A DNA stretch of 64,000 bases from Gammaproteobacteria bacterium (GTDB lineage: Bacteria; Pseudomonadota; Gammaproteobacteria; GCA-2400775), in contig JAADIY010000028.1 of the NCBI GenBank assembly GCA_013151045.1, positions 8,335 to 72,334 on the forward strand. Reading direction: 5' to 3'. Shown here piece by piece: positions 5,426 to 57,097 of the stretch. The notes beneath the pieces were generated by a model that did not search any database, was not told where the DNA came from, and saw only the letters and a list, made by a program, of their open reading frames with translations. Position numbers and translations under genes: made by a program. Every line of letters begins with the position of its first letter. Positions within the stretch are counted from its first letter, which is position 1.

Positions 5426-5484
5426 TTTTACTTACCGAGATACGTTAAATATTTTTTCAAATTTTTTGGCGCTGAGCCTGCGCC

Positions 5485-6310: not shown

Positions 6311-6339
6311 TTGTCTGAAGACCAAGAACAATCTATAAT
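6311..6339 (+). promoter_or_regulatory. sigma70-like promoter
   Basis: TTGTCT (6311-6316), 17-bp spacer, TATAAT (6334-6339); about 40 bp upstream of a small ORF with a GAGG RBS. Confidence 0.4.
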
Positions 6340-6381
6340 CAGCAGCTAGATTTTATTGGTACTAGTTCTGAGGAATTCACC

Positions 6382-6504
6382 ATGTACAATATATTTCCAT
6401 TAATTTTGATCCCGGTCTTCATCTTCTTTGGTTTGGCTGTGTTTTTAGCTGGCTCTATGTCTGAAGCCGCAATTAGTTCATCACTCGCTAATAAAGACAA
6501 ATAA
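6382..6504 (+). CDS. small single-TM membrane peptide (40 aa), below ORF-track cutoff
   Basis: GAGG RBS 8 nt upstream of the ATG; MYNIFPLILIPVFIFFGLAVFLAGSMSEAAISSSLANKDK; shares a PLIL(L)IP...F core with the 38-aa peptide at 16131-16247. Confidence 0.5.
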   Translation: MYNIFPLILIPVFIFFGLAVFLAGSMSEAAISSSLANKDK

Positions 6505-6554
6505 GTAATCCGCGCGGCAATTGACCTTAATTGCCCGTCTGAACTTTTTCTAGT

Positions 6555-6582
6555 GCTGATAACCTAAGTTTAGGTTATCAGC
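6555..6582. promoter_or_regulatory. perfect 13-bp palindrome (candidate operator)
   Basis: gctgataacctaa-gt-ttaggttatcagc, 18 bp upstream of the 6600 start codon; no T-run follows, so it is unlikely to be a terminator. Confidence 0.3.
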
Positions 6583-6599
6583 CTTAAGTATCCCACCTA

Positions 6600-7115
6600 A
6601 TGTCTTCTACTGATCATGATCGGCGCCTTATTGCTTTTCTATTAGGCTCAGCATTCTTTTTGTTTATTGGCACAACCCATGGTGTCGTCCAAGTATTGCC
6701 TGGCATACGTGACTGGTTAGTATCAGTTGGAACGCCGGTCAGCGGGCCCGGCCATATGATTGATCCACTTGCGCATGCGCATATCAACTTAGTCGGTGGC
6801 ATGGTGCTGATAAGCATGGCAATGACCTATTATCTATTCCCGCGTATTGCTGGCTGCCAAATTTGGTCTGGTAAATTAATTAGTCATTCTTTTTGGTGGA
6901 CTGCAGCTGGAGTTGTCGGCTTTTACACAACACTCATGGTATTTGGCATCACTGAAGGCCGCTTGATGCGTGCTGGTGAGCTAGAACAACAAGCCGCCGT
7001 GCATACCTACTACGGCATGACCATTAGCGTGCCAGCAACCATTATGGCCATTGGTTTTTGGATGTTTTTTATTAACATCTTCGCAACCGCACGTATTTAT
7101 TTTAAGAACCGCTAA
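6600..7115 (+). CDS. membrane protein resembling the C-terminal helices of heme-copper oxidase subunit I (CcoN-like fragment paralog)
   Basis: 171 aa, 4-5 TM; HAHINLVGG ... YYLFPR motif parallels the HAHLALLGF ... YYGL heme-ligand region of the full CcoN-like gene at 17939-19345; paralog at 21321-21860. Confidence 0.5.
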   Translation: MSSTDHDRRLIAFLLGSAFFLFIGTTHGVVQVLPGIRDWLVSVGTPVSGPGHMIDPLAHAHINLVGGMVLISMAMTYYLFPRIAGCQIWSGKLISHSFWWTAAGVVGFYTTLMVFGITEGRLMRAGELEQQAAVHTYYGMTISVPATIMAIGFWMFFINIFATARIYFKNR

Positions 7116-7128
7116 TCACTTCAATATC

Positions 7129-7647
7129 ATGACCTTAGAGTGTGGTTGTCCAGAACATTACCCAAATGAATGGGATGGGCAAGACATCGATCTTAGTGGG
7201 CACTGTGTTCACTCTCACTCTATACCCACGTTCTTACATATGCCGATTAACTATGCCGGTCATATGATGCGTCAGGCAGCTTCAGTTAATGCCTTAGAAC
7301 TAAAAGAACGCTGGCCAGGTTTTACCCTAACGAGGACGGGCATGCTTGGTGGAGAAATTTTACGTCTTATCGAAGACACAGATTCGCCTTCAAGACTAGT
7401 CAAATATCTACCTATCAACTTCGACGTTCGCTGTGTCATTCATCAAGGCACCATGAAGACATTACGTGACAGTGCACGTGTGGTACAACAAGCTTTATTT
7501 GATGAAGGCAAATTACCCAAAGAAATGTACCTGTGCCATCTTACTTGCCCACGCTGTGCAGAGGAAAGAGGGGGTGACAAAATCTTATTATTACGTCGTT
7601 GGCAAGCCAGTACAACTTTGCAGACGCGTCTAAATAATCGAAAATAA
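7129..7647 (+). CDS. Cys/His-rich hypothetical protein, possible metal binding
   Basis: About 172 aa from an internal ATG (the longer ORF overlaps the previous gene); CGCPEH, HCVHSH and CHLTCPRC motifs. Confidence 0.4.
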   Translation: MTLECGCPEHYPNEWDGQDIDLSGHCVHSHSIPTFLHMPINYAGHMMRQAASVNALELKERWPGFTLTRTGMLGGEILRLIEDTDSPSRLVKYLPINFDVRCVIHQGTMKTLRDSARVVQQALFDEGKLPKEMYLCHLTCPRCAEERGGDKILLLRRWQASTTLQTRLNNRK

Positions 7648-7648
7648 T

Positions 7649-8029
7649 TTATTGCTCTTGAGGCCAAGGCAATTCAAAGTGCAATACTGTCTCTTCTGCA
7701 CCCCGTTTAAGTTTGACATAAAGATACTCGTCGCCTTCTTCAATTTTTACTGCGCGACGAAACACACCGATATGACCATCTTGAACCGATTGCACCCATT
7801 TAGCCGACTCATTTGAACGCAGCCAAACAATTAGGCTCGAAGCAGGAGCACCTTTTTTCTTAGTCGATTTCAGCCAAATTTCATTAAAACCAACCTTAAC
7901 TGGATAAGGGTGCGTCTCTATCTTAAATATGATGTCATTCCATAACTGCGCGGGAACACGTGCCTGGTCCCCTTTACTGCATGCAACCATAGATAATGAT
8001 AATAAAAGAATAGCGATAAGCTGACGCAT
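7649..8029 (-). CDS. lipoprotein, hypothetical
   Basis: 126 aa; lipobox LSMVAC; last gene of the tightly packed minus-strand operon. Confidence 0.45.
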   Translation of the reverse strand: MRQLIAILLLSLSMVACSKGDQARVPAQLWNDIIFKIETHPYPVKVGFNEIWLKSTKKKGAPASSLIVWLRSNESAKWVQSVQDGHIGVFRRAVKIEEGDEYLYVKLKRGAEETVLHFELPWPQEQ

Positions 8030-8034
8030 ATTAC

Positions 8035-8346
8035 TTATTGTTCCTTTGAGTGTTTCATTAAATATTCGATCACTTCATTAATTTCTAGTTCGGTAAGAAC
8101 TGGCATCGCTTGTTGCGAGCGGTGCACTTGCATACGCAATACTACTGCACGCCAATCTTTAGCAGCTTTGGTTTCCGGCTTGGGTGCAACATGACAACTA
8201 CCACAATATTCCACTAATGCAATTTGATTTTCAGAACCTGATGAAAGAGCCCTGTTTTCAATAGTATCCTCTTCAACACTACAACTCGCGCTAAGCATCA
8301 ATACTATAAAGAAAACTAATCTATTTACCTTTGCTCTGGTCACCAT
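8035..8346 (-). CDS. mono-heme c-type cytochrome (lipoprotein)
   Basis: 103 aa; signal/lipobox LSASCS; single CGSCH heme-binding motif. Confidence 0.6.
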   Translation of the reverse strand: MVTRAKVNRLVFFIVLMLSASCSVEEDTIENRALSSGSENQIALVEYCGSCHVAPKPETKAAKDWRAVVLRMQVHRSQQAMPVLTELEINEVIEYLMKHSKEQ

Positions 8347-8791
8347 CGCTATCTTTGCTTACTTTTGAGCTCTCATCAGCATCAGTCTTACTAGAGTTCA
8401 TACCAAACATACTGATCATGGCATAGATAAAACCACCTGAGATAGCGATATATACCAAAGCTAATCCAAAACCCCAATTAAACCATTCTCTTTCGAAACC
8501 TTCACGATCACCCCAGAATGGAAAGCTTAAGAATATCGCGAACAACAATACAGCAATAATCACCGCTACAAACCATTTTGGTATAGCAACTTGAGACTCG
8601 GAAACCTTATCAACCATTTCCCAGTCTTCTAAACCACGCTTAGCCAAACGCTCCTCTTCTGAAGCGTAGCCATAAAAATCATCTGATTTCTTACCCCACT
8701 CTTGCTCAATCGACTCTAAAGGCACCTGTTTGCCCGCTGATTCATCTGGTTCAGCAGACTCGACATTGCTCTCTTGCTTATTAGTAACCAT
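8321..8791 (-). CDS. membrane protein, FixH-like by position (downstream of FixG-like gene)
   Basis: 156 aa with 2 TM and acidic termini; start overlaps the FixG-like stop. Confidence 0.4.
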   Translation of the reverse strand: MVTNKQESNVESAEPDESAGKQVPLESIEQEWGKKSDDFYGYASEEERLAKRGLEDWEMVDKVSESQVAIPKWFVAVIIAVLLFAIFLSFPFWGDREGFEREWFNWGFGLALVYIAISGGFIYAMISMFGMNSSKTDADESSKVSKDSDGDQSKGK

Positions 8792-10101
8792 TATTTTTCC
8801 ACCGCTACGTGATGAACCCGAAAACTACGTCGCCAGCCATCTGTTGATTCTACTTTAACTAAAAATGGATATAAACCAGGTTCTAAATCATGACTGATAT
8901 TGAATTTGACATATTTTCTCTCAGCCGTATCAAATGACGCTATCGTTGACTGAAAACGGTATGCATCTTCATCCAAGCCCTCTATAGAGACTGAAACCTC
9001 AGCGGGCTGATAAAGCTTATGTGAAAGCGAAACACGAAATTCATTTTCATTTCGCCCTTGCGCTGTCTGTGTATCATAAACCGAGAACCGGTAAGGCTCA
9101 TAGTTGACCATGCCCCAACTAAACATACCAACACCTAGTGTTACCAATGGAAGGATCCAAAAGAAACGTGACCGTAGCGCCATCATCGCATTGCGTGGTT
9201 GTTCTTTTTTAACCTGACGTTCTCCCATCGCAAAACTCAACAAACTAGCCCCCATTTTACGTGACCCGCGAATGCTCTCACATGCTGTAATGCATTCGCC
9301 ACAATTAATACATGCATCATAAGTCTGCGTCTTTCGTGGGTCTATCTCAACAAAGCAAGACGTCTGACAAAAATTACAGCGCGCGCACTCATCAGCAGCC
9401 GATGTATCGTGAACAATATGTAATGTCTCTTTGGTCTTAAATGAATGCTGCCATACTTTATATACGCACATAAAACGACAAAAAAAATGTCGTAGGTAGG
9501 CAACATCAACAAATATAATTAATACACAAATACCATAAATATAATATTCCGAACCGTTCATTCCATCAGCTGATTGAAATGTAACAAAATCAAAAAGAGT
9601 ATCTAGTGGATAAAAATAAAGCATCGGGATAAAACCAGCCACCATAGAGAAACCTAGCAATATCGCACCCAAACCCAACCAGTTTACGATTTTATTTTTA
9701 CCTGACGATACTTTCATTGGCGCACCATCAAGCATCACCTCTGAATTCTTACCAAGCAGACGCCGATGCCAATAGTTAGCCCATTCAGACATAGTATTTT
9801 GTGGGCAAGACCATCCGCAAAATGCCGTCCCTAAAGCTGAATACGTAATAATTAAAGCGCTCGACACCATCAACCAAAAACCCATGATAATGAAAAAGTC
9901 ACCAAAATCAATTTGCCGATCTAGCACCACAAAGGCACCCGCTAAGATATCGATACGGAAAAAGCCTAAAACAGGAATCAATATTGCCACCAACACAGTA
10001 ATTGCTTGCAACAGTCTCCTGCGTCGGTGTATTTTTTGTCCTGGGCTATTACTATTGACAGCAATAATTGGGATATCAGAAAGAGAAGATGACTGACTCA
10101 T
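8791..10101 (-). CDS. ccoG: FixG/CcoG-like membrane-bound 4Fe-4S ferredoxin (cbb3 oxidase assembly / cupric reductase family)
   Basis: 436 aa; N-terminal TM helices; two CxxCxxCxxxC motifs (CARCNFCQTSC, CINCGECITAC); C-terminal Ig-like periplasmic domain. Confidence 0.75.
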   Translation of the reverse strand: MSQSSSLSDIPIIAVNSNSPGQKIHRRRRLLQAITVLVAILIPVLGFFRIDILAGAFVVLDRQIDFGDFFIIMGFWLMVSSALIITYSALGTAFCGWSCPQNTMSEWANYWHRRLLGKNSEVMLDGAPMKVSSGKNKIVNWLGLGAILLGFSMVAGFIPMLYFYPLDTLFDFVTFQSADGMNGSEYYIYGICVLIIFVDVAYLRHFFCRFMCVYKVWQHSFKTKETLHIVHDTSAADECARCNFCQTSCFVEIDPRKTQTYDACINCGECITACESIRGSRKMGASLLSFAMGERQVKKEQPRNAMMALRSRFFWILPLVTLGVGMFSWGMVNYEPYRFSVYDTQTAQGRNENEFRVSLSHKLYQPAEVSVSIEGLDEDAYRFQSTIASFDTAERKYVKFNISHDLEPGLYPFLVKVESTDGWRRSFRVHHVAVEK

Positions 10102-12737
10102 AACTGTTGCACTCGCTCATTAAGCAATAAATTGGTAATAGGTCGCGCCTGATAAAGTGGACTAACACTTTTTAACTTGGCAATATATTTTTTAATAGCC
10201 TCATCATCATTATTTTTCTGAGCGATACCTAACAGAGCTTCTAAGGTTAATAGGTGATCAGGCTTAATCAATAAAATTTTCTCTAAGCTAGCTTGTTTAA
10301 CTTTTGGCGTAATACCCACACGAGACAAAGATGCCAACATCTTGTCTGCAAGAGTTCCGCTAATCCATTGATCCTTCGGGTTGCCTCTGTAAGCAAATTG
10401 TAGGAAACGCTGCGCTCGGGCCTCATCACCACTTAGTTGAGCCAACCAACTACGCATCGATGCATCGGCAGCAATATAGGCTCGCTCAAAAAGCTCTGCT
10501 TCATTCTTATTCACCTGCAAATGTTGAGCTGCGAGTTCTGCGCTAGGCCTTTGTTTGATTAACCACTCTAGCACTTCTTGAAAATTTATTTCCCCAGCGT
10601 AGCGTACGCGAGGGAGGTGATATTCTATCTGTGGCCGCCATTCATCTTCAATTAATTTGGCGGGGCTTTTAATACGACCAATATAACGACCTAACCAAGT
10701 CCATACACCCTCACCTCCTGTTTGTTTCGCATTAGATTCTAGCACTTTGATATTTTTCAATAGTCGACCAGCATCAACGGTAACACCAGGGCTACCCACC
10801 ATCGCCAACCTAAAACCATCAACAAATAATGCGGCACCAGGGAAGCTATGCTCAAACGTGTTCAATACAATTTGCAAAGCAGTTAAATCAAATTGATTAA
10901 GAGCCAACCATTGCACATAAAGACCATCTTGATTTAAGCGTGATTTAACACGATCAAATTGTTGTTGCGATAACAAACGACTACGACCAACTAAATCGGG
11001 ATGGAATAGATCCCCGACAATGACATCGTAATATTCATTAGAACGCATTAAATAACGGCGCGCGTCATCATTAATAATAGTAATCTTATTACTAATATCT
11101 CTATTGCTTTGAGCAAACCATTTATCAGCAGACTCTATTGCGCCTTTTGATATTTCAACAGCAGTAATATCCACATCAAAGTCTAAGGCTGCTGATGCTG
11201 AAATTCCAGTGCCCAAACCAAGAAACAATACTTTTTCTGCATCGGGGTTTAATAACAAGGGTAAGCGTGCTTGGTTCTTCTGAGCGACAACTGCCGTGGG
11301 CTCAGTTGAAGCGTCCATACGTTGCAGGTCTGATAACAGTAAACGCTGCCCCCGCTGCGTTTCGACAACATGGGTAGTCGCTATTGCATCTTCGTGTAGC
11401 GACAATACAGATTGGCTATTGGCATGAGCGACAGGAAGCAGCTCTGTAACCGTTGGCAGGTCCGGCAAGAAAAAAAGAGTGCTTGCGAGTATGGGTGATA
11501 CTAGCCAAAATAACCTCGCTTTACACCAGCGCATACCGGCAACAAATAAGATGATTGCTGCTATTAATATAGTTAGCGGGGTACCGACTGTAGGCATTAA
11601 TACAAATCCTGCCAACAAAGCACCAAAGCCAGCACCAATGGCATTAACACCGTAGAACCAAGCGCCTGCACTACTGGGGTCTTCATAACCTCGAACGAGT
11701 AAAGGCAACCATGCGCCTAAGCAAAAGGTCACGACAACCGTCACCATAGCTAAAGCAACACCCTGCTTTATTAGCGCGTTGATTAAAGAGCTGTACTCAA
11801 TTGTTTCGGCCCATGCCGATACGGATGCCAAGCTAATCAAAGAAATTATCGCTGCTAACGCTGCCGTGACAGGCAACAGATTCAACCAGAGTCGTCTCGC
11901 CCCCCATTGTGATAAAACACTGCCACATGCTGTGCCGGCCAGGAATATCGCTATTATTATAGCTAGTACATATTCGGTACGAAGTAAGGCCATACCGTAG
12001 AGTCTAGCCCATGCGACTTGTAGCATCAGTGCGGCTGCACCGATCAAGGCATAGCTTAGTAAATCTAAGACAGCCGGTTTTACTGAAAAGTTCCTACTAA
12101 CACTCTGCTTTAGGGGTGATTTTATGGCGATCAAAAAAAATAAAAGGCCTGTTATCGCACCTAATAGTGCAATGGTATATAAACTATTCGCCCAACCTAA
12201 TACTGGCAACAACAATACCGGCACTAACGCACCAAATGCTGCGCCCAAGGTATTGGCCGCATAGAGATGGGAAACCGTAAGCTGTGTGTCTTTTATCGCG
12301 GCAAGAACAAGTGGAAAGCCTAAGCCCATCGCCGTCGCTGGCAATAACATAAAAAATAGTGCCGCAACGAGCTCAATGCTATGCCATGCTGACAACTGGA
12401 TATCACTAGTCGCCGTGATTAAAAATTCTGACCAATATTGATTTATCGAAGGTAGCCCTACAGCATAAAGCGCTACCAATATTTCAATTAAGGCTAGGAC
12501 CATCAAAGGTCTCGCTAGGTGTAATAAATACCGTTTACCAAGAATACTACCTAGGCCTAGACCAAACATGAAAGCGCTAACTGTAATGACGACGCCAAAG
12601 TTACTGACGCCAAACTGTAGACTTAACATGCGCATCCATAGCACTTCGTAGGCTAGTGCTACGAGGCCAGAAATACCGTAGAGGATGAGCAATAGAAAGA
12701 TGAGAGGTGTTTTATCTGACCTTATCATGGTCATCAA
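10098..12737 (-). CDS. fused MFS-type membrane domain / spermidine-synthase-like (SAM-dependent aminopropyltransferase fold) / TPR protein
   Basis: 879 aa; about 12 TM N-terminal; central domain with GLGTGISA and VIVGDLFHPD spermidine-synthase motifs; C-terminal TPR-like repeats. Confidence 0.7.
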   Translation of the reverse strand: MMTMIRSDKTPLIFLLLILYGISGLVALAYEVLWMRMLSLQFGVSNFGVVITVSAFMFGLGLGSILGKRYLLHLARPLMVLALIEILVALYAVGLPSINQYWSEFLITATSDIQLSAWHSIELVAALFFMLLPATAMGLGFPLVLAAIKDTQLTVSHLYAANTLGAAFGALVPVLLLPVLGWANSLYTIALLGAITGLLFFLIAIKSPLKQSVSRNFSVKPAVLDLLSYALIGAAALMLQVAWARLYGMALLRTEYVLAIIIAIFLAGTACGSVLSQWGARRLWLNLLPVTAALAAIISLISLASVSAWAETIEYSSLINALIKQGVALAMVTVVVTFCLGAWLPLLVRGYEDPSSAGAWFYGVNAIGAGFGALLAGFVLMPTVGTPLTILIAAIILFVAGMRWCKARLFWLVSPILASTLFFLPDLPTVTELLPVAHANSQSVLSLHEDAIATTHVVETQRGQRLLLSDLQRMDASTEPTAVVAQKNQARLPLLLNPDAEKVLFLGLGTGISASAALDFDVDITAVEISKGAIESADKWFAQSNRDISNKITIINDDARRYLMRSNEYYDVIVGDLFHPDLVGRSRLLSQQQFDRVKSRLNQDGLYVQWLALNQFDLTALQIVLNTFEHSFPGAALFVDGFRLAMVGSPGVTVDAGRLLKNIKVLESNAKQTGGEGVWTWLGRYIGRIKSPAKLIEDEWRPQIEYHLPRVRYAGEINFQEVLEWLIKQRPSAELAAQHLQVNKNEAELFERAYIAADASMRSWLAQLSGDEARAQRFLQFAYRGNPKDQWISGTLADKMLASLSRVGITPKVKQASLEKILLIKPDHLLTLEALLGIAQKNNDDEAIKKYIAKLKSVSPLYQARPITNLLLNERVQQL

Positions 12738-12743
12738 CCATGC

Positions 12744-13106
12744 CTAAAACGGAAAAAACCAGACTACCGCAGCTACGCCATGAGCTAGCGCTAAAGTAAC
12801 TGTTAAACCCGCACTAATCATATGCCACATAAAAACTTGCTTACCATAAATCGCCATACTGATACCTAATATGGCAGTGGTCAGCACTAACACTAATAAC
12901 GTACTTCCCATAATAAAGAGAATGGTATGCTTTTCTTCTGTACTAATCGCGCGCGGTCCAAGATCAATTTCTTTATCCGTAAATTCAGTGATCACATCCA
13001 TAGCATTATCAGCTGACGCCGCGGTATCCGCTGATGCAAAAACAATATTACTCAACAGCAATGTGACAAGAACAATCGCAACAAGATAATAAGAGCGCAA
13101 TAACAT
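12744..13106 (-). CDS. small membrane protein
   Basis: 120 aa, 3 TM; operon-packed. Confidence 0.4.
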   Translation of the reverse strand: MLLRSYYLVAIVLVTLLLSNIVFASADTAASADNAMDVITEFTDKEIDLGPRAISTEEKHTILFIMGSTLLVLVLTTAILGISMAIYGKQVFMWHMISAGLTVTLALAHGVAAVVWFFPF

Positions 13107-13111
13107 AATAT

Positions 13112-13351
13112 TTATTCTGATTCTGATTCAGCTACTGTTTTATTTTTTTGCTTATAACGCTGCAGCGCAAAATACCAATACAGTATAGCCATGACAACAA
13201 ACGGCGCCAGCACCAAAAAACAAAGGAAAATAAAAATTGCCCACGGCGTTTCTATAGTGACATGAAAAAAACTGTAGCTATCAAGACCCGCTTGTGCGGA
13301 TAACGGCAACAGCAATAAAAGATATACATAAATAGTTCTAAAATAAAACAT
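13112..13351 (-). CDS. small membrane protein
   Basis: 79 aa, 2 TM; start 3 bp from the upstream stop. Confidence 0.4.
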   Translation of the reverse strand: MFYFRTIYVYLLLLLPLSAQAGLDSYSFFHVTIETPWAIFIFLCFLVLAPFVVMAILYWYFALQRYKQKNKTVAESESE

Positions 13352-13353
13352 AA

Positions 13354-14424: not shown

Positions 14425-14429
14425 ACAAT

Positions 14430-15393: not shown

Positions 15394-15405
15394 GCAGCTC
15401 TACCC

Positions 15406-15690: not shown

Positions 15691-15699
15691 CGTACTCTC

Positions 15700-16002
15700 C
15701 TAAATAAGCTGTCCAAACAGTAATTGTGCTGCACCATAAATTACCGCACAAATCAGCCCAAAAATCAGCCAAGCAAATAATACCACTTCGCCCTTACGCA
15801 TGCCTTTTTCGCCCTTACGCTTGCCATCTTTATAAGCGTCGCGTGCAAATTTATAAACCACCACTGTAAATAAAATAATAATACCGGCCATCATAAAGAA
15901 AAAGATGCCGATGCTATATTCCTGTGATTTAAGTCCCTCGATGGTGAACTGATCCAGCTCTTCATCTGAGAGAATTATGGCGTTGTTATCGGTATTATTC
16001 AT
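15700..16002 (-). CDS. small 2-TM membrane protein
   Basis: 100 aa. Confidence 0.4.
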   Translation of the reverse strand: MNNTDNNAIILSDEELDQFTIEGLKSQEYSIGIFFFMMAGIIILFTVVVYKFARDAYKDGKRKGEKGMRKGEVVLFAWLIFGLICAVIYGAAQLLFGQLI

Positions 16003-16060
16003 TCTGGTCTACGAACACTAACACAGATATAGACCATGCTAGGTAGGGAAAGGTTTAACA

Positions 16061-16104
16061 TTTTTGAGAAAAAATGCCGCTCAAGAGAGCGGCATTTTAT
16101 TTCC
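16061..16104. terminator. bidirectional rho-independent terminator splitting the cluster into two operons
   Basis: 12-bp perfect stem aaaatgccgctc / gagcggcatttt with loop aaga; A-run on one side and T-run on the other. Confidence 0.55.
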
Positions 16105-16130
16105 ATAAATACGCCGTATGGCGATTTACT

Positions 16131-16247
16131 TCATTGCTTATCTGACTTATCGAAATTATCAATCATAAAGCTGTAAATGTAAGGTGCTACAAATACAACC
16201 AAAATAGGTATAAGCAGTATTAATGGTGGATTATCTAATTCAATCAT
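16131..16247 (-). CDS. small single-TM membrane peptide (38 aa), below ORF-track cutoff
   Basis: MIELDNPPLILLIPILVVFVAPYIYSFMIDNFDKSDKQ; AGGTGA-like RBS; similar to the 6382-6504 peptide; followed by the terminator. Confidence 0.45.
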   Translation of the reverse strand: MIELDNPPLILLIPILVVFVAPYIYSFMIDNFDKSDKQ

Positions 16248-16272
16248 TTTATTTCACCTATATTGGATCAGC

Positions 16273-16917
16273 TTAGTGGCCAATTGAATGGTCTGGTTCC
16301 CAATCTGAAGGGGGCAAACGCTTCACTGTAATCATAACAGCAATACAAAAGTAAATAACGTAGAAAATATCGATGGTATAGCCAATATCCCACGAAGGTT
16401 GAACCCGAATTTTCACACCATCATCACGGTATTCGCCTTCAAAGTTAGCTAACGCTACATCTTTACCAACAATCGTGTAGTAGTCCATATCAGCATTTTC
16501 GCGCTGTAATTCAACAATTTGATCTTTGACAAGACGCAAATCATTCATTGTTAAAGGATGACGATCCTGATGGCCTGCCCAATCAGAGCCTTGAGACTTA
16601 ACTGTGTCAACAATATAAGCCATCTTATCTTCATCGTTATCAAGTGCTGCAACTTCTGGAGTATCCATCAGAGCAATATACTCTTCATAGATAATAGCCA
16701 TAGGGCGTTGACCCCACAAAGGTGCTGTTACCAAAAACGCTGTAATAATTGTCAGCATCAACAACCACACCACTGCCTGTGGCAAGCGATTATTGTCTTC
16801 CATAATGCCACCCAGACTCTCGTGCTCCCAAACATGTCTTGCATGCTCGTTCTGATCGCTGGTTGCTAACGTATATAGTGGTTTATCGTATTTCCAAGCC
16901 ATTTGGCTATCCTCCAA
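16273..16917 (-). CDS. 2-TM membrane protein with acidic periplasmic/cytoplasmic domain, hypothetical (occupies the CcoP position but has no heme motif)
   Basis: 214 aa. Confidence 0.45.
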   Translation of the reverse strand: MEDSQMAWKYDKPLYTLATSDQNEHARHVWEHESLGGIMEDNNRLPQAVVWLLMLTIITAFLVTAPLWGQRPMAIIYEEYIALMDTPEVAALDNDEDKMAYIVDTVKSQGSDWAGHQDRHPLTMNDLRLVKDQIVELQRENADMDYYTIVGKDVALANFEGEYRDDGVKIRVQPSWDIGYTIDIFYVIYFCIAVMITVKRLPPSDWEPDHSIGH

Positions 16918-16928
16918 GGAAAACTAAA

Positions 16929-17877
16929 TTACTTCAAACTCAAGACATAATCCATCAAGTAACGGATTTCGCTGTTAGGCGCATAATCAGGTACCAATGG
17001 TGGATAAAGACTCTTGCCTGCAGCGTACTCTTTATAATCAGCACGCCATTGATCAAAGTCAATCTCGTTACCGTTAGCATCAACTTCGCCCCATAAATAA
17101 TCGAAGCGAGGCATAATTGAATGCGGCTGAACTAATCTTGGATTGAAAAAATGCATCATCATCCATTCTTTCGATGAGTTACGCGAACCAACATGCAATA
17201 AATCAGGAGCCTTACGATCAGAACCAAACGCGGTTGGAGCCTCACCATTAAAATCACCTAGACGCGGCGGCAAACCAAAATATTGCCAATCCTGAGTTTG
17301 CTCAGGAAGCAGCGTATGACACCTCGCAGCCTTCACGTACGAACATCGTTTTACCGCTACCAACGTGACGCTTATCAGTATCCGCGGCTGAGGCTAATAC
17401 TGCCGCAGCAGTCCAATCACGAGTCGCGCTAGCATTTTCAATATAGGGGAAGGTTTCACCTTCGTAATCACCACGCGACACCAAGAATACTGCGCCTTCA
17501 TCTGAAGTCGCAACACCAACTTGACCATCATCAGCACTTAATGCTGCGACCTCAGTACCAAGGATACCCGGATTACGAACCGCACTAGGAAACGGGGTTC
17601 CCGGCACATAGACATAAGCGTCAACCGGATCAATATCAGCACCTGTGACAGGATCTTTCTTGATAGTAACAGTTAAAGGCTTACCTTTCCCTTGTAGGAA
17701 CGGATCCTCGTAGGAAAAACCTGAGTTATGGCCATAAGACAAACCTTTAACCAAACCTGTTTCAGTCACGCCAACACTATAAATAGTTAAGCTAGGCATA
17801 TATAAGGTGATCATCATTGAACCACCTAATGCGATACCAAACATGCGGGTACCAATTTTATACTCTCTAAAAGCCAT
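16929..17877 (-). CDS. CcoO/FixO-like (NorC-like) mono-heme subunit with long N-terminal insertion; frame break inside the heme-binding motif
   Basis: Upstream frame ends ...TMFVREGC EVSYAAS*; the downstream frame continues ARCHTLLPEQ ... APDLLHVGSRNSSKEWMMMHFFNPRLVQPHSIMPRFDYLW, colinear with the CcoO stretches REGCYNCHSQMIRPF and [38 protein letters not shown]. Only 4 nt lie between the two Cys codons. Confidence 0.55.
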
Positions 17878-17938
17878 TCTTCTTTACTCCGCTAAAGGTT
17901 AACGCTATTCGTTTTTTGTTATGAACTACGAATAACGA

Positions 17939-19345
17939 TTAACGTTCGTATGCGATCTCATGTGGCAAACGACCTACTGGCACTGGCGTACCTGCACGTG
18001 CTGTCATCCACATGTTATAGAGCCAAACAACGTTACCAGTAAATACCATCGTACCGCCGACCCAACGAGCAATCATATAAGGATGCTCTGCAATAACCAC
18101 GTCGATATAAGGCACTTCGTAGATCTTCGCCGCACCCTGAATCAAACCAGCAATAGTGATTGAGATCCAGTAGGTTGCAAAACCAATCAATAAGAACCAG
18201 AAGTGGAAATTAGCTAGCGCCAATGAGTACAGCTTACGACGCAAGATCGTTTGTAGGCCGTAGTACACAGCAGCAGCTTCTAGGAAAGTAGAGAAACCTA
18301 GCAAGGCCAAATGAGCATGAGCCACAATCCAACCAGTACCATGTACATACCAGTTAATGGCACGCGTTTGCTGGAAACCACCCTGCATATTTAGCGGGAT
18401 AGCTAACATAACACCCGTAATGGTAAAACGAATTTCGATGTTATCAACAAAGTAATGCCATTTACCGGTCATGGTAAGGAGCAGGTTAGATACAAACGCA
18501 ATCGCTGGCACCAAAATCAACACACCCTCAACAGAGGCGAAAGATTTTAGCCACTCAGGCAATGGTGATGACATCAAATGATGCGCTGCTGGTGTTGAGT
18601 AAAATACAACCACTGACCAGAAATGCAAGTGACCAATACGATGAGAGTACAGTGGATTACCGGTAATCTTCGGCACCGTATAATAGGCAATCGCCGCTGC
18701 CACCGGGGTAATCCACAAGCCAAGAATGTTATGGGCGTGCCACCAGGTCAAATAGGCTTCTGTCAAACCGGTCAGAGAAAAGTACTCCGGCAGGTTACCG
18801 ACCAGCACCACAATCATCAACATGAATATGGCCGAACCAAAAAACCAGTTGGTGGTGTAAATACCCTGCGTCTTACGATGAACGATGGTCATCCAGACAT
18901 TGATCCCCAATGGCAACAGCACTGCGAACAGGATAATCAGATCAATAGGCCATGGAAAGTCAGTGTACTCACGTCCGGAAGTAATACCGGCCCACATCAG
19001 GCACAAGGCAACAGAGAGACCAGCGTTCCAGTTAAAACAGGTCCAGATACCAAGCTTTTCAGACCAAAGTTTGGTATTACCCAAAGCAGGCGTGATGTAC
19101 ATAAAGGCCATGGCAAAGGCCATTGAGATCCAGCCGAAGATAACGGCCATGACGTGAACTTGGCGCATATGACCAAAGGCAAACATATAGCTACCGGTTA
19201 CAAAATCCGGGAAAGCGAGTTTTGCAGCATTAAAAGAACCCAAGGCAGTCCCAATAATAAACCAGATGATGGACGAAAACCCAAAAAAGACAGCCGCTGA
19301 ACCTGCGGGTATATCTTCGTTCTTCGCAAAAAGATACTTGAACAT
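17939..19345 (-). CDS. cbb3-type (C-family) heme-copper oxidase subunit I, CcoN-like, divergent
   Basis: 468 aa, 12 TM; conserved His ligand pattern (FGHMRQVH; WWHAHNILG; PAAHHLM; VAHAHLALLG) matches CcoN, not the NorB HLWVEG pattern. Confidence 0.8.
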   Translation of the reverse strand: MFKYLFAKNEDIPAGSAAVFFGFSSIIWFIIGTALGSFNAAKLAFPDFVTGSYMFAFGHMRQVHVMAVIFGWISMAFAMAFMYITPALGNTKLWSEKLGIWTCFNWNAGLSVALCLMWAGITSGREYTDFPWPIDLIILFAVLLPLGINVWMTIVHRKTQGIYTTNWFFGSAIFMLMIVVLVGNLPEYFSLTGLTEAYLTWWHAHNILGLWITPVAAAIAYYTVPKITGNPLYSHRIGHLHFWSVVVFYSTPAAHHLMSSPLPEWLKSFASVEGVLILVPAIAFVSNLLLTMTGKWHYFVDNIEIRFTITGVMLAIPLNMQGGFQQTRAINWYVHGTGWIVAHAHLALLGFSTFLEAAAVYYGLQTILRRKLYSLALANFHFWFLLIGFATYWISITIAGLIQGAAKIYEVPYIDVVIAEHPYMIARWVGGTMVFTGNVVWLYNMWMTARAGTPVPVGRLPHEIAYER

Positions 19346-19444
19346 GGGAACTGTGCTCCGTTTAAGACGTAAAACTTAATATTAAAATTATAAAATGCTT
19401 TTTTTGAATACGACCACATTACGCAGTCATAACTCGAACCTTTT

Positions 19445-19537
19445 TTAGTGCTTACCCGGCATCATCAGATACCAAGCGAACCACATACTTGAGAAGGCCA
19501 AAACAATACAAAATACAGTTGCGACAATAGTTATCAT
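19445..19537 (-). CDS. tiny membrane peptide (30 aa), possible
   Basis: MITIVATVFCIVLAFSSMWFAWYLMMPGKH with a GAGGGGAG RBS, immediately upstream of the CcoN-like gene. Confidence 0.3.
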   Translation of the reverse strand: MITIVATVFCIVLAFSSMWFAWYLMMPGKH

Positions 19538-19557
19538 CGTTATCTCCCCTCTTTCAT

Positions 19558-19845
19558 TTAGGCTGCTGCGCGAGCTTGAGCTTCTAACGCACCGTGGCGT
19601 GAAGCAGAAACCATCATGATAGCCATGAATGCAACACCAAACACGAGCATACACCACGTCATGAAACCCATAAAGGTAGTGGGGTCATAGACTTGACCAC
19701 CCCAACCGCCCCAATCGTCAAAACGACCGCGGCCCAGCGCACACATCAATGCAGCGCCAAATACGCTACCGTTGCCCATTCCTGTAGTAACACCAGCAAC
19801 CAAGCTCACCCAAAAAGTCTTTGAATATGGCAACAAATTGTCCAT
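19558..19845 (-). CDS. small 2-TM membrane protein
   Basis: 95 aa. Confidence 0.4.
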   Translation of the reverse strand: MDNLLPYSKTFWVSLVAGVTTGMGNGSVFGAALMCALGRGRFDDWGGWGGQVYDPTTFMGFMTWCMLVFGVAFMAIMMVSASRHGALEAQARAAA

Positions 19846-20077
19846 ACAAGCTCCTCATTATGCGCACCTTAAGCAGCAGGGCCGCGTAGCGCGATCTAAT
19901 ATTAAATTACAAGCAGCGGACACTGAAACAGCCCGCCTCGCAAAAAAGTCGGGGAATATTCACATAATGGCCGTTTTGAGTCAAGCCCTGAAAACACTTG
20001 AACAGCAAATGAATAAAGTGTTTTGTTACAAAAAAATCGTTTAAAATACAGCTAATTCAATTAATTAGTGACCGACA

Positions 20078-20299
20078 ATGTCTTATCAAACCTGGATATC
20101 ACGAAAAGAAATTTTTATCTACCTTATCGCTATTTTCACCGGCTTATTCATCTGCGGATATTCGATTCACATGCTGATAGGTGGGCTAGTAAGCGGAACG
20201 ACAGAGCGCATCATCATCGGCGCTGTATGCAGCCTAATGTTTATCGTTATTGGACTTATGGCCTATGACGTTAAGAAACAGCGCCAAGAACAGGCCTGA
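20078..20299 (+). CDS. small 2-TM membrane protein, possible
   Basis: 73 aa; the only plus-strand ORF inside the minus-strand cluster. Confidence 0.3.
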   Translation: MSYQTWISRKEIFIYLIAIFTGLFICGYSIHMLIGGLVSGTTERIIIGAVCSLMFIVIGLMAYDVKKQRQEQA

Positions 20300-20315
20300 G
20301 ATACCCTAGAAACGA

Positions 20316-20768
20316 TTATTTATAAATACGCAGGCTCGCCATTGCATCGTCATAAACCGTGGCAGACTCAAACTGACCGCGGTGAAACACATACTGACGT
20401 TTTTTACCTGACATATCCAAACCAGTAAGCCCAAACGACTTTCCGGCGTAGTCAGAAAAAAAGCGCACCTCTTTAACCAGAGACACGTGATCGTTGCTAC
20501 GCAGCCTGAGCGTGACATGCTGCTTACTCACACTTAGCGCAACGGGCGCACTAGGCAGCAGCATCAAGCGTCCAGACAATATTCGATTAGCACCGATAAA
20601 ACCCATAAAACAGGCAAGAAACATTAGCAAATAAGCTAAGGGTTGATTGCCTTGGTACCATAACACTAAGGCATAGGCACCAAGCAGTATCACTACTGGC
20701 AGATAAAGCAGTGCATCCCAAGCCGCGCCACGACGATCGGGCGCCAAACTATAATCTTGTTTCGCCAC
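20316..20768 (-). CDS. membrane protein, hypothetical
   Basis: 150 aa, 2 N-terminal TM plus soluble domain. Confidence 0.45.
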   Translation of the reverse strand: MAKQDYSLAPDRRGAAWDALLYLPVVILLGAYALVLWYQGNQPLAYLLMFLACFMGFIGANRILSGRLMLLPSAPVALSVSKQHVTLRLRSNDHVSLVKEVRFFSDYAGKSFGLTGLDMSGKKRQYVFHRGQFESATVYDDAMASLRIYK

Positions 20769-20771
20769 TAC

Positions 20772-21290
20772 TTAACCTGCTTCAGGGTTTAGCTTCGCAG
20801 CCAGTGTCTCAGATATGATGGCATCCATTTCACCGTACAACATACGGCCTGGTCGCTTAAACTTCACCTGCTTATCCGCGCCAATAACGAATGTCCAAGG
20901 ATCACCTTGAACGCCAAAGGCGGTGAACGCTTCTGGGTTTTGATACTGATCCATATGCAAAAACAACACATCGTCTTCATATTTATTCAATATCGCTTTA
21001 AGCATCTGTAATTGTTTATCACATACTGTGCAATGCCCTGGGGTAGCAAACTCTAGCAATATTGTTTTATTCTGCGCCAAGGCCTCATCAATCGACAATT
21101 GATACATACGCGCATCTGGCTGGCGGTACGTCGTGATACGACTAAAATCACCACTAACATCTGCTAATGTCTTGGTCTTCAATGACGGCGCATACTCACC
21201 TACACGTAACTGGCCTTCAGGCGTAATGTCACACGCACTCAGCATCATTGTTAACGCTGCAGCCGTCAGCAAACTCGCATATGATTTCAT
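20772..21290 (-). CDS. thioredoxin-fold lipoprotein (TlpA/ResA/Sco-like thiol-disulfide oxidoreductase)
   Basis: 172 aa; lipobox MLSAC; FATPGHCTVCD CxxC motif. Confidence 0.55.
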   Translation of the reverse strand: MKSYASLLTAAALTMMLSACDITPEGQLRVGEYAPSLKTKTLADVSGDFSRITTYRQPDARMYQLSIDEALAQNKTILLEFATPGHCTVCDKQLQMLKAILNKYEDDVLFLHMDQYQNPEAFTAFGVQGDPWTFVIGADKQVKFKRPGRMLYGEMDAIISETLAAKLNPEAG

Positions 21291-21320
21291 TTCACTAACC
21301 TCAAGTTAAGCATTCAGCAA

Positions 21321-21860
21321 TTAAGCGCTGCTAGGAACATCTTTTTCCCAACCAACACAGCTGCGAAAAACGTTATAACCCCAGATACAATTTGCCAATA
21401 GCACCATAGAACCAAAAATTCCCATAGCCGCGAGCCAGGGCTTAATAACCGCTTCCACCTCACTAGGAGGCAAACTCACGCTAGCAGTTCCACCCAATAT
21501 GCCGGCAATGGTAAATAAACTCACCATACCGATCAAACCAATATTGTGTATCCAGAAATGCACTTTAACCAGCTTCAAACTATAAATCGGTCGTTTCACC
21601 AAACGCGGCACAAAATAATAGACCGCAGCAAAAATCGCCATTTCCACCCAACCCAATAAATTAACATGGGTATGAGCACGCACTATCAACTGACCATGAG
21701 CACGGTGATCGACAAAGTGGCGTAGCTCGGCGATGCCGCCCATCAAAGCACCCCAAGAAAAGCCAATGATGCTATAAATGATACAAGCGTAGAGAAACAA
21801 TAAGGTATAGCGTGTGTACTCTACGTCGTCCTCCCAAGGAGCATTGTTCGAAACACTCAT
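21321..21860 (-). CDS. membrane protein resembling the C-terminal helices of heme-copper oxidase subunit I (paralog of 6600-7115)
   Basis: 179 aa; RAHTHVNLLGWVEMAIFAAVYYFVPR motif; start ATG overlaps the stop of the upstream cytochrome c (ATGA). Confidence 0.5.
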   Translation of the reverse strand: MSVSNNAPWEDDVEYTRYTLLFLYACIIYSIIGFSWGALMGGIAELRHFVDHRAHGQLIVRAHTHVNLLGWVEMAIFAAVYYFVPRLVKRPIYSLKLVKVHFWIHNIGLIGMVSLFTIAGILGGTASVSLPPSEVEAVIKPWLAAMGIFGSMVLLANCIWGYNVFRSCVGWEKDVPSSA

Positions 21861-22497
21861 TGCTCAGCATCCGGACCTTGGCCAACACCACCTGTAGGCG
21901 CAGAGGTATCACCACTAAAATCTTTGGTACGGATATCTTGATACTTATCCTTCCAGCTTTCGGGCGCCCAAATGCTCAACATACTGTCGATGAAAACCGA
22001 TTCCCCTTTAGGCGGAATAGGTGAAGTCGAAGCACCCTGCTGAGAACGCAGCTCTGATAAGAACGTTGCAACGGCATAGAGCTTATCTTCGCCAAGCTCA
22101 GCAACATAAGCCGCTTCTTTACCTAAACCATGATCAATCGTCGCCGCATGATAAGTTTCTTTATAAATTGGCTCGGGATCGCTTAAAAAGCTCCCCAGCC
22201 ATTCATGACTACGGCGCGAACCAATCCAATACCATCAAGCGTTGTTTGACCGCCCATACTCGTGCCCGACAAAAAAGCACGATGACAAGAACTACATCCA
22301 TTACCCTTAAAAATTCGATGGCCTAAGTTACCATTTTCAGATAGGTCAAAACTCGTTAGATTCGAAAAAATCTGTTTCTTAGTAGTCAATCGATAACCTT
22401 CAAGCGCCACATAGCCTACTAATGCAACCACTATAAAAATCCCGGCGATGCCAAATAATACTTTTTCGCCACGCTTTAGACTAGATTTTGCCGCCAT
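21857..22497 (-). CDS. membrane-anchored mono-heme c-type cytochrome, two apparent homopolymer frameshifts
   Basis: N-terminal TM plus CSSCH in the 22183-22497 ORF; the sequence continues in two other frames (DPEPIYKETYHAATIDHGLGKEAAYVAELG ... then ESVFIDSMLSIWAPESWKDKYQDIRTKDF ... DAEQ*); shifts sit at the A5/C4 runs at 22185-22197 and the C5 run at 22003-22007. Confidence 0.5.
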
Positions 22498-22601
22498 GAC
22501 AACCTCAACAAATAAAACAGATAAAAGAAAAGGGTGGACAAGCCACCCTTTACCAAGTTCAAGCTTGCACCAAACTAATGGCGCAACATCAACATGCCAG
22601 C

Positions 22602-23366
22602 TTAGTGCTTATAGGGCACATGACGCGCAGGTAAGCGCGAGTTACCCAAGCTATATGGAGAAGCTTCTTTGGTTGATAAATAAGCAGCAACATTATTAAT
22701 GTCTTCATCAGACATATTTTTAGCCACATTACGCATGACTGCTTGTGGATCGTTCGCACGCGAACCATCACGCCATTTCTTCATCTGCGCAACAAGGTAA
22801 GTATATTTTTGCTGGCCAATCATTGGGAACATTGGCTCCACACCACGACCGTTATAGTCATGGCAAGAACGGCATGCTGCAACGCTTTTTTCGCCGATAC
22901 CGTGATTAACAATCGACTTACCAAGATATGTTTCACCCACCTCAACACCATTCGCTCTCAAAGTGTTCAAATCAGAAACAGACTTATCAACAGTTTCACG
23001 ATCATGCTGCCATTCAGCAATATAAGCAGAGACATCCAAACGCTCTTGAGCTGTTAAGCCCTTAGCATTTGAGTTCATGATGTACATAGTCGTGTCTTCA
23101 CGCTTGTCATCTGCATAGTCTTGCAGCTGCTTAGCGATAAACTGGAAAATTTGGCCCGCTAAACGAGGAGTACCTAAATCGTCGCTACCCATACCATCAG
23201 GCATATGGCAACCGGAACATGCTGGAACGCCAGTGTCTTCCTTGCCGTTGTTATAAATATTTTCACCATTTGCCAAATCAACGGTAAGACCGCCAGCGGA
23301 CGCAGAACTTACTGCAAACGCAAAAGCAAAAAGCGAACCCACTGCAAACTTAGTTGAGTAACGCAT
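22602..23366 (-). CDS. di-heme cytochrome c4-like protein
   Basis: Signal peptide MRYSTKFAVGSLFAFAFAVSSASA with a GGAGGG RBS; two CxxCH motifs (CSGCH, CRSCH). Confidence 0.7.
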   Translation of the reverse strand: MRYSTKFAVGSLFAFAFAVSSASAGGLTVDLANGENIYNNGKEDTGVPACSGCHMPDGMGSDDLGTPRLAGQIFQFIAKQLQDYADDKREDTTMYIMNSNAKGLTAQERLDVSAYIAEWQHDRETVDKSVSDLNTLRANGVEVGETYLGKSIVNHGIGEKSVAACRSCHDYNGRGVEPMFPMIGQQKYTYLVAQMKKWRDGSRANDPQAVMRNVAKNMSDEDINNVAAYLSTKEASPYSLGNSRLPARHVPYKH

Positions 23367-23888
23367 TACAACACCCTCCAAAAAAACTGTGTCGAGGCCG
23401 TGACCGACCTTTTATTAACTTCATGACTACCGCATTCAACGAACATTTCGCTGCAGCAATCTATAATTCAAATTTGGGAAGCTTCAAGCCTACCAAATAA
23501 CGGTTCGCTTAAGAGCTTTTCTTCAGCAAAAACCAAGCAAATCCCCAAGCTAGTGGGAACCAAATCGCGTAAAGTATGACTACGTCTGCAGTCTCTAGCA
23601 TGGCTAACCTCTGATTATCTTAATGATTCATAAAATGAATAAAACGGGCGACTGTATACCATGAAAACAGCACTCAGCGCAAGCTCAGTTATGCCATTAT
23701 AGCGTCAATATTGGCACTGTTTTTAACCCAAACCACCCTTCTAATAGATTGATTTTTAACGAAAATTAAGCTGTCAATGAAAAACAAAAACAGCACAGCA
23801 AAAAATTTTAGCCCAACTGCATTAGATGACCACAGACAGAGTTTCCGGTATGCTCCGCAGCCATCTCCAACGGCGGCAATTCTAAGCC

Positions 23889-57096: not shown

Positions 57097-57097
57097 G

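Follow-up and report, generated by a model that had tools for sequence, protein, structure and literature searches.

The window analysed here is a stretch of 64,000 nucleotides from a gammaproteobacterial metagenome-assembled genome (MAG; assembly GCA_013151045.1, contig JAADIY010000028.1, positions 8,335 to 72,334 of the forward strand). Between positions 6600 and 23381 it carries a gene-dense cluster, nearly all of it on the minus strand and with genes tightly packed or overlapping, that includes the core genes of a cbb3-like (C-family) heme-copper oxidase. An earlier note, made from the sequence alone, had described this oxidase as divergent and its accessory set as unlike the canonical ccoNOQP and ccoGHIS loci, and both statements hold. 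The genes that it listed are real and lie within 6600–23381, and family searches agree with most of the list. These searches used Pfam (the source of most E values given here), NCBIfam equivalogs with their curated bit cutoffs, a PDB sequence search and Foldseek. The genes are numbered g01 to g24, and we compared them with 84 related loci fetched from North Pond (NORP) and Thiotrichales-labelled MAGs, Chromatiales, ‘Ca. Tenderia’, Gallionella, Sideroxydans, Nitrotoga and Zetaproteobacteria.

A divergent subunit I

Subunit I is encoded by g07 (17939–19345, minus strand), a CcoN-like protein of 468 residues (Pfam E 1.6e-73) that would carry heme b and the heme b3-CuB site of the enzyme. It aligns end to end with CcoN of P. 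stutzeri (3mk7_A; E 1.8e-64, ~30% identity). We examined the histidine ligands of heme b (two), heme b3 (one) and CuB (three). All six are present, in keeping with the histidine pattern that had first suggested CcoN: H64, H205, H255, H256, H343 and H345 of g07 correspond to H60, H207, H257, H258, H345 and H347 of 3mk7_A, and they are invariant in 84 orthologs. The active-site tyrosine of helix VII, Y251 in P. stutzeri CcoN, is Y249 in g07 and is likewise invariant in 84 sequences. The glutamate of the Ca2+ site is retained (E126 of g07 aligns with E122 of P. stutzeri CcoN), as are P. stutzeri residues Y223, T215 and H243. In the PDB sequence search the best matches were all cbb3 CcoN chains, and no NorB was found at E ≤ 0.001. 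Because the cross-link tyrosine and the CuB site are conserved, subunit I is probably an O2 reductase rather than a nitric oxide (NO) reductase.

Against TIGR00780, the ccoN equivalog, g07 scored 225 bits, well under the cutoff of 583 bits; a canonical representative (P0328) scored 616 bits. When a protein library was clustered at 50% identity, the whole clade collapsed to one representative, 86% identical to g07, and the next full-length relative was 40% identical. Across the 84 sequences, which come from three classes, 68% of the columns are at least 95% conserved. The dN/dS of ccoN is 0.009–0.014 at a dS of ~1, and the protein is 97–99% identical to those of relatives L004–L010, although the DNA of the cluster is only ~70–79% identical. 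This constraint is far tighter than that on any neighbouring gene. Judged from these sequences, the subunit I clade is tight, isolated and far from canonical CcoN.

A separate observation concerns other full-length CcoN-like proteins in public data. Many of them, including P0311, P0314, P0325, P0347 and P0364, are ligand-less ‘pseudo-CcoN’ proteins, in which the active-site tyrosine and most or all of the histidines that bind heme and Cu are missing.

A conserved and previously described gene order

Gamma-, beta- and zetaproteobacterial MAGs contain hundreds of relatives of subunit I (77–100% identity), and 380 species-representative genomes encode one. By CcoN, the nearest (97–99% identical) belong to NORP and Thiotrichales-labelled MAGs. 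The gene order from g01 to g20 or g22 recurs across the 84 loci wherever the contig reaches. Order varies only in some Gallionellaceae, where g01–g05 are inverted or absent directly upstream of g06-ccoN and g22–g24 have moved. Two loci from ‘Ca. Tenderia sp.’ MAGs (L028 and L072) have the same order and a CcoN that is 85% identical. One CcoO homolog, P0493, is labelled ‘Kaarinaea lacus’. We rejected this species as a cultured carrier, because it is a Nostocales cyanobacterium and the contig is most likely a contaminant of a non-axenic culture assembly.

The same ordered set has been listed for ‘Ca. Tenderia electrophaga’ (bioRxiv 10.1101/2022.05.06.490989; PMC5371394), where 26 proteins in the region ALP51721–ALP51744 keep the arrangement (bioRxiv 10.1101/2022.05.06.490989). 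The published list opens with a di-heme cytochrome (ALP51722, the counterpart of g01), a mono-heme cytochrome, a truncated CcoN, a thioredoxin, four small genes, CcoN and CcoO. It continues with three small genes, a mono-heme cytochrome, one gene, a ‘Ser/Thr kinase’, STMD and two genes, and closes with CcoG, one gene, a mono-heme cytochrome, two genes and, last, a truncated CcoN (bioRxiv 10.1101/2022.05.06.490989). From its position, we infer that the ‘Ser/Thr kinase’ is the FGE-fold gene g15. Our comparison was made with the gene lists and with Tenderia-genus MAGs, not with the ALP proteins themselves. The cluster itself is therefore not new, and the window holds one more copy of it. The synteny that the earlier note proposed to look for does exist across relatives, but the arrangement had already been published, so its novelty is not upheld, and the statement that several of these genes had never been reported with cbb3 oxidases was mistaken.

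In the Tenderiales preprint the region is described as ‘a sort of alternative complex IV’ and is said to have been recognised before in iron oxidisers from fresh water (bioRxiv 10.1101/2022.05.06.490989). The Tenderia papers describe it as holding ‘cbb3-1/cbb3-2’ (bioRxiv 10.1101/2022.05.06.490989; PMC5371394), and it probably includes the ‘complex IV-2’ of these authors. In the Tenderia metatranscriptome, canonical ccoNOPQ was weakly expressed, whereas ‘complex IV-2’ ranked with the gene sets of highest expression; the di-heme c4 cytochrome is named ‘Cyc1’, and the region that holds its gene is syntenic with contigs of Mariprofundus (PMC5371394). Genomic studies of iron oxidisers routinely score ‘proximal’ and ‘distal’ forms of cbb3, a distinction in which the term ‘distal’ is attributed to Ducluzeau et al. 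2008 (PMC8788666, PMC7029218, PMC10734462). In S. lithotrophicus ES-1 the distal ccoNO stands at the 99th expression percentile, in a study whose supplement gives no locus tags. In Emerson 2013 and Kato 2015, cbb3 comes up only in general terms. In relatives the cluster coexists with a canonical, proximal ccoNOQP, which makes it a second oxidase, as had been suspected.

CcoO and divergent counterparts of canonical parts

Adjoining ccoN is g08 (16929–17877, minus strand), which encodes a FixO-like, CcoO-type mono-heme subunit. In relatives this protein has 316 residues and consists of a transmembrane (TM) helix, an inserted domain of ~110–140 residues and a heme domain whose motif (CWWCH) is intact in all of them. 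The ~140-residue insertion reported by the earlier note is therefore real in relatives, but in the window the gene is in two open reading frames (ORFs) and its heme motif is destroyed. In an AF2 model of CcoO the inserted domain is a confident alpha/beta structure of ~110 residues, for which Foldseek found no match in the PDB at E ≤ 0.001.

Several cbb3 parts that seem to be missing appear to be present as divergent homologs. Just downstream of ccoO, g09 (16273–16902, minus strand) encodes a protein of 209 residues with a CcoP N-terminal (FixP_N) domain (PF14715, E 1.4e-4), a periplasmic domain and a C-terminal TM helix. Ten of 15 g09 orthologs match PF14715, and g09 contains no CxxCH, so that the protein would be CcoP-like but heme-less. 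The cluster has no di-heme CcoP, as the earlier note had said; the c4-type cytochrome g01 scores 23.6 bits against a ccoP cutoff of 180 bits. What the note had overlooked was the CcoP N-domain itself. Similarly, its statement that CcoI and CcoS are absent holds for CcoI but probably not for CcoS. The 94-residue product of g12 (15406–15690, minus strand) is CcoS/FixS-like with a C-terminal extension (PF03597, E 0.0013). Its score of 18.8 bits is under the cutoff of 23.1 bits, but 15 of 20 orthologs match the family (best E 2.3e-5). The CcoG/FixG-like membrane ferredoxin, with its two [4Fe-4S] clusters, had been recognised from the start: g19 (8791–10101, minus strand) matches Fer4_5 and Fer4_18, contains both CxxCxxCxxxC motifs and scores 105 bits against TIGR02745, under the cutoff of 317 bits. 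Neither a CcoI Cu P-type ATPase nor a CcoH domain was found in the cluster ORFs or in the ten largest ORFs elsewhere in the window, and no CcoQ was recognised in the cluster or the window.

The 156-residue product of g20 (8321–8791, minus strand; ~52 loci) has a CcoP-N-like TM motif, ‘P.WF...FPFWG.R’. Its match to FixP_N is insignificant (E 8.1); the resemblance is one seen by eye in the motif. Both g20 and g22 were considered as CcoH/FixH and rejected, with no FixH match even at E ≤ 10.

Cytochromes and a thioredoxin-fold lipoprotein

Besides CcoO, the cluster encodes four c-type cytochromes, one di-heme and c4-type and three mono-heme, and Pfam matches together with CxxCH counts bear out the number given by the earlier note. 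The secreted di-heme protein, g01 (22602–23366, minus strand), is Cyc1-like. Its two CxxCH motifs lie at residues 55 and 170, counted from the TTG of the ORF at 23381, and Pfam Cytochrom_C matches it in two stretches. It occupies the same position in 49–53 loci and is the probable periplasmic electron donor. Two of the mono-heme proteins are anchored in the membrane and paralogous. One is g02 (21857–22497, minus strand; 211 residues in relatives), with an N-terminal TM helix and one CxxCH, which is broken here. The other is g13 (14884–15393, minus strand; Cytochrom_C, E 5e-8), with one TM helix and one CxxCH, and is ~28–29% identical to g02. The third, g21 (8035–8346, minus strand), is a small cytochrome of the DHC family (PF09626, E 5.6e-7) with one CxxCH. 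The thioredoxin-fold lipoprotein of the earlier note is g04 (20772–21290, minus strand; Pfam Thioredoxin, E 9e-7). It has a lipobox (LSAC) and a CTVC motif, and the stretch ‘ATPGHC.VCD’, seen in the sequence and the alignment, is conserved.

Truncated CcoN, FGE-fold and 879-residue proteins

Two stand-alone proteins had been read as only the C-terminal helices of subunit I, and Pfam COX1 and Foldseek both agree. They are g03 (21321–21860, minus strand; 179 residues, profile positions 310–434) and g24 (6600–7115, plus strand; 171 residues, positions 309–430), and each matches only the C-terminal third of subunit I (profile ~310–434). The AF2 model of g03 is a four-helix bundle (pLDDT 84.7) whose best Foldseek matches are CcoN chains in their last third (TMq 0.73–0.74, rmsd 2.6–3.2 Å), with NO reductase (NOR) chains as weaker structural matches. 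Four of its histidines are invariant (H63, H65, H101 and H105). By sequence pattern, the invariant His-x-His aligns with H345/H347 of CcoN; the two further histidines are likewise invariant. The ‘truncated CcoN’ proteins reproduce exactly the four helices of the last third of subunit I. In Gallionellaceae loci, g24 is linked to g22 in the opposite orientation.

The protein encoded by g15 (13354–14424, minus strand) has an N-terminal TM anchor and a clear FGE-sulfatase domain (Pfam E 3e-50), as the earlier note had seen when it called the protein SUMF1/NirV-like. In FGE/SUMF1 the catalytic, Cu-binding Cys pair lies near the C-terminus (C336/C341 in human). The conserved C-terminal stretch of g15 (‘RGGSFKSDPF...YHRNYSF...FYGFRC’) has no such pair. 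NCBIfam and PDB searches matched only the generic fold, the PDB alignments to FGE cover only residues 183–278, and the best solved relatives are non-FGE members: the C-domains of OvsA/EgtB, ToxD and SUMF2. On the evidence of these residues, g15 cannot be a true FGE. The argument for copper chemistry that had been drawn from the FGE family fails, because g15 lacks the catalytic Cys pair.

The 879-residue protein g18 (10098–12737, minus strand) combines ~13 TM helices with a spermidine-synthase/methyltransferase-like domain and ends in a helical stretch. The earlier note had described it as a fusion of major facilitator superfamily (MFS), spermidine-synthase and TPR parts. NF037959 (85 bits, cutoff 40 bits) and Pfam Spermine_synth (E 2.3e-10) support a fused membrane and spermidine-synthase-like protein, but for the TPR part Pfam gave no match at E ≤ 0.01. 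We rejected the idea that its membrane domain is a CcoA-like MFS copper importer, since the conserved residues resemble those of a spermidine-synthase-like membrane domain and no conserved Met/His TM motifs were seen.

Broken genes in this copy

Two genes of the cluster are broken in the window, a feature that the earlier note had missed. The first, ccoO, is split into the ORFs 17302–17877 and 16929–17363. The lesion, at 17322–17325, falls in the only CxxCH of the gene: relatives read GGTTGCTGGTGGTGTCAC (G-C-W-W-C-H) and the window reads GGCTGCGAGGTGTCAT, a net deletion of 2 nt plus a substitution. The other is the mono-heme cytochrome gene g02, where a tandem duplication of 5 bp (ATTGGATTGG; 22221–22230) splits the gene; a tblastn search with the intact ortholog from L004 matches it in two frames. 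The lesions are present in the deposited MAG, where JGI calls truncated products of 191 and 104 residues on the same contig (95,225 bp) and the NCBI protein numbering has no ccoO accession. Among the best 120 CcoO homologs listed, all have 305–318 residues except the window’s own product of 191.

Neighbouring genes are disrupted as well. The fpg/mutM gene (25321–26141, minus strand) consists of ORFs of 157 and 116 residues with a 5-nt insertion near 25671; the L004 ortholog is intact at 282 residues. On the other side, in 4100–6142 (plus strand), a hydrolase-like lipoprotein gene upstream of mlaA is spread over three frames. In the mlaA gene that follows, the signal peptide lies in another frame, and MlaA-like sequence continues beyond an in-frame stop at 6140–6142. 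These two genes look like pseudogenes or a poorly assembled stretch. We found at least six frame-breaking lesions, all in the first 26 kb (4100–26141). Suspected frameshifts at 37984–38662, 43655–44750 and 56485–58285 were resolved as intact genes in their own right (HPr and EIIA, LptA and LptC, and Ham1, respectively).

Around 24 other genes of the cluster are intact and under strong purifying selection. Both halves of ccoO have a dN/dS of 0.024–0.05 against relatives, and CcoO and g02 have evolved no faster than their intact orthologs. Because of these low ratios and the lack of faster divergence, the ccoO and g02 lesions are either a very recent inactivation or an assembly error. They are not homopolymer-type errors and are clustered at 4–26 kb, a pattern to be expected both from recent decay and from an assembly that is chimeric or locally poor. 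The earlier note had allowed for a decayed pseudogene array. Disruption of that kind is indeed seen in two cluster genes and in fpg, mlaA and the hydrolase-like gene, but it does not extend to the remaining, selected genes of the cluster. Read as written, the locus could not, we predict, yield the oxidase, and it is unsafe to annotate it as a working oxidase in this MAG.

Small membrane proteins and flanking sequence

The cluster contains ~11 conserved small membrane ORFs, in agreement with the more than ten tiny membrane proteins counted previously. Upstream of ccoN lie g05 (20316–20768; 150 residues, two TM helices, orthologs in 61 loci) and g06 (19558–19845; 95 residues, with an invariant Gly-rich motif, orthologs in 82–83 loci), both on the minus strand. 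Downstream, also on the minus strand, are g10 (16131–16247; 38 residues, one TM helix, kept in 54 loci), g11 (15700–16002; 100 residues, two TM helices, ~70 loci with weak sequence conservation), g14 (14430–14903; 157 residues, multiple TM helices, ~70 loci), g16 (13112–13351; 79 residues, ~68 loci) and g17 (12744–13106; 120 residues, ~67 loci). A single-TM peptide of 30 residues is encoded directly upstream of ccoN (19445–19537, minus strand). It is found in 82 of the 84 loci, is 75–93% identical among the best-scoring loci listed, and is a candidate small subunit. Between g05 and g06, on the opposite strand, a two-TM ORF of 73 residues (20078–20299, plus strand) is matched by tblastn in 53 loci, with its position and its opposite orientation unchanged. 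Both mini-ORFs look unannotated and are strongly conserved.

At the far end of the cluster, g22 (7649–8029, minus strand) encodes a lipoprotein of 126 residues that has no Pfam match and is present wherever loci extend that far. The gene g23 (7129–7647, plus strand; ‘Bact_hydrolase’ family, PF20603, E 5.2e-12), which likely starts at the ATG at 7129, is co-oriented with g24 and was not found among the fetched loci, most of which end before that point. At the other end, a divergent gene (23889–25280, plus strand) encodes a protein of 463 residues with ~9 TM helices and no Pfam match. Its synteny is kept in 34–35 gammaproteobacterial loci, and it may be part of the region, possibly gene 1 of the published Tenderia list.

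A terminator-like hairpin follows g01 (22529–22551); otherwise, scans for promoters and terminators gave no more than background. The window has 16 near-matches to the FNR-type palindrome TTGATNNNNATCAA, against 3.9 in shuffled sequence (~4-fold), but none of these FNR/ANR box near-matches lies within the intergenic regions of the cluster. Rfam and tRNA scans found nothing. The remaining 38 kb contain intact housekeeping genes and no further oxidase genes; between 26187 and 63957 these include an ABC transporter, hydantoinase, subtilase, MgtE, PTS-Ntr, RpoN, LptABC, RecG, SpoT and BatD.

Interpretation

In the reading that we think probable, the region is orthologous to a published, conserved cluster of ~26 genes, which encodes a ‘distal’, non-canonical cbb3 oxidase. 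CcoN would be its O2-reducing heme-copper subunit, a role suggested by the conserved ligands, tyrosine and Ca2+-site glutamate. Electrons would pass from the periplasmic di-heme c4 cytochrome through the heme of CcoO. The two membrane-anchored mono-heme cytochromes possibly help, in place of the missing di-heme CcoP; the ‘Ferrovum’ authors have likewise suggested co-located cytochromes as a replacement for the missing subunit III. Domain matches and strict synteny suggest that the heme-less CcoP-N protein and the one- and two-helix proteins most likely form a non-catalytic periphery of the complex. By homology, the CcoG-like ferredoxin and the thioredoxin-fold lipoprotein may, together with the CcoS-like protein, serve Cu and heme maturation in the way that their canonical homologs do. 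The FGE-fold protein, the 879-residue protein and the two truncated CcoNs probably belong to the system, since they are conserved, with no assignable role.

Several points weigh against this interpretation. O2 reduction, subunit composition and maturation roles are all deduced from homology and synteny, and no biochemical or structural study of the clade was found in the searchable literature. We infer that the clade is the ‘distal’ subtree of Ducluzeau et al. 2008 because the iron-oxidiser papers use that term and the clade is present in the same genera. Residues E323, S240 and Y317 of P. stutzeri CcoN are Q321, G238 and A315 in g07, and Q321 does not vary within the clade. The nearest non-canonical relatives also commonly have Gln at position 323, and the canonical representative has Glu. 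In the work on 3MK7, Glu323 is said to be hydrogen-bonded to the proximal histidine of heme b3, and S240 and Y317 are said to be channel residues. With these residues replaced, proton delivery and the tuning of heme b3 may differ from those of the studied enzymes. Finally, the heme motif of CcoO is destroyed in the window, so the enzyme may not function in this organism.

That last point leads to the alternative that deserves most attention, namely that the cluster is being lost in this organism: the lesions would be real, the oxidase non-functional, and another oxidase elsewhere in the genome would do the work. The lesions in ccoO and g02 are not of the homopolymer type, they stand in the deposited MAG with its truncated gene calls, fpg, mlaA and the hydrolase-like gene are broken too, and the window’s CcoO alone is not full length among the best 120 homologs listed. 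Yet ~24 other genes are intact, and the low dN/dS of both ccoO halves, with CcoO and g02 not accelerated, would make any inactivation very recent. Moreover, the confinement of the lesions to 4–26 kb, beside 38 kb that look intact, is what a poor or chimeric assembly would also give. We regard such a loss as a substantial possibility, if not the one that we favour. A bolder proposal takes up the phrase of the Tenderia authors, ‘alternative complex IV’, and holds that the cluster encodes a structurally distinct respiratory complex, in which the CcoN/CcoO core would be joined permanently by the heme-less CcoP remnant, the two anchored cytochromes, the micro-subunits and the four-helix CcoN modules. 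These modules keep the His-x-His that binds both b hemes in CcoN, and could bind heme or scaffold its insertion. We hold this to be rather unlikely. Were it true, the FGE-fold and spermidine-synthase-like proteins would perform an undescribed step of oxidase maturation or modification, and the complex would be specialised for high-potential electrons from Fe(II), electrodes, nitrite or sulfur compounds at very low O2.

It is much less likely that the core enzyme is a NO reductase, as the earlier note had allowed, or some other C-family derivative that reduces a substrate other than oxygen. NOR families arose repeatedly within the heme-copper oxidases, canonical cbb3 has NO side activity, and the clade is both far from canonical CcoN and altered at E323, S240 and Y317. 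But none of the 84 sequences departs from the cross-link tyrosine (Y249, the counterpart of Y251) or from any of the three CuB histidines, the best PDB sequence matches are to cbb3 CcoN with no NorB at the threshold used, and the carriers are microaerophilic oxidisers of iron, sulfur, nitrite or electrodes in which the oxidase is highly expressed. Least credible of all is the notion that the accessory genes (the FGE-like, 879-residue, truncated CcoN and small membrane proteins) are unrelated neighbours of ccoNO. None of them has a demonstrated link to an oxidase, and in some Gallionella loci g01–g05 are inverted or absent upstream of g06-ccoN; against this, the order g06–g20 is kept in essentially every long-enough locus in three proteobacterial classes, despite an overall DNA identity of ~70–79% even among the closest relatives, and the genes, which share one strand, overlap or follow closely on each other.

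The interpretation as a distal cbb3 oxidase gives the locus a wider context, since neutrophilic iron oxidisers, Nitrotoga-type nitrite oxidisers and electrode-oxidising Tenderiales appear to have this type as their main terminal oxidase, expressed at a high level. The window adds no new kind of system. It sharpens the picture of a known one: an isolated, conserved clade with hidden CcoP-N, CcoS and CcoG homologs, a protein of FGE fold that cannot be a true FGE, and four-helix copies of CcoN.

Comparison with known systems

With cNOR and qNOR the window shares the fold of the heme-copper superfamily and a CcoO/NorC-like mono-heme partner. NorB-type NORs have an FeB site with Glu ligands, and NORs are not known to carry the cross-link tyrosine; subunit I of the window differs in having it.

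Canonical cbb3 oxidases (P. stutzeri 3MK7/5DJQ and R. capsulatus 6XKW) have in common with the window the fold and ligands of CcoN and an adjacent CcoO-type subunit, and their CcoP N-domain, CcoS and CcoG appear to have divergent homologs in the window as well. The window differs in the insertion of ~110–140 residues in CcoO and in its many extra conserved genes. Its cluster is without a di-heme CcoP, a recognisable CcoQ or CcoH, and CcoI, and the intergenic regions are without an FNR-type box.

The distal cbb3 of iron oxidisers is closer. Subunit I is 78–84% identical to proteins of Sideroxydans, Gallionella, Nitrotoga and Mariprofundaceae that lie in the same neighbourhood, and by its NCBIfam score it is non-canonical. 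The papers on distal cbb3 scored only ccoN and ccoO and did not discuss the accessory genes. The closest counterpart is the region of ‘Ca. Tenderia electrophaga’. It belongs to another lineage, and in the window ccoO and one cytochrome gene are frame-broken, but gene by gene the order in the window matches the published list.

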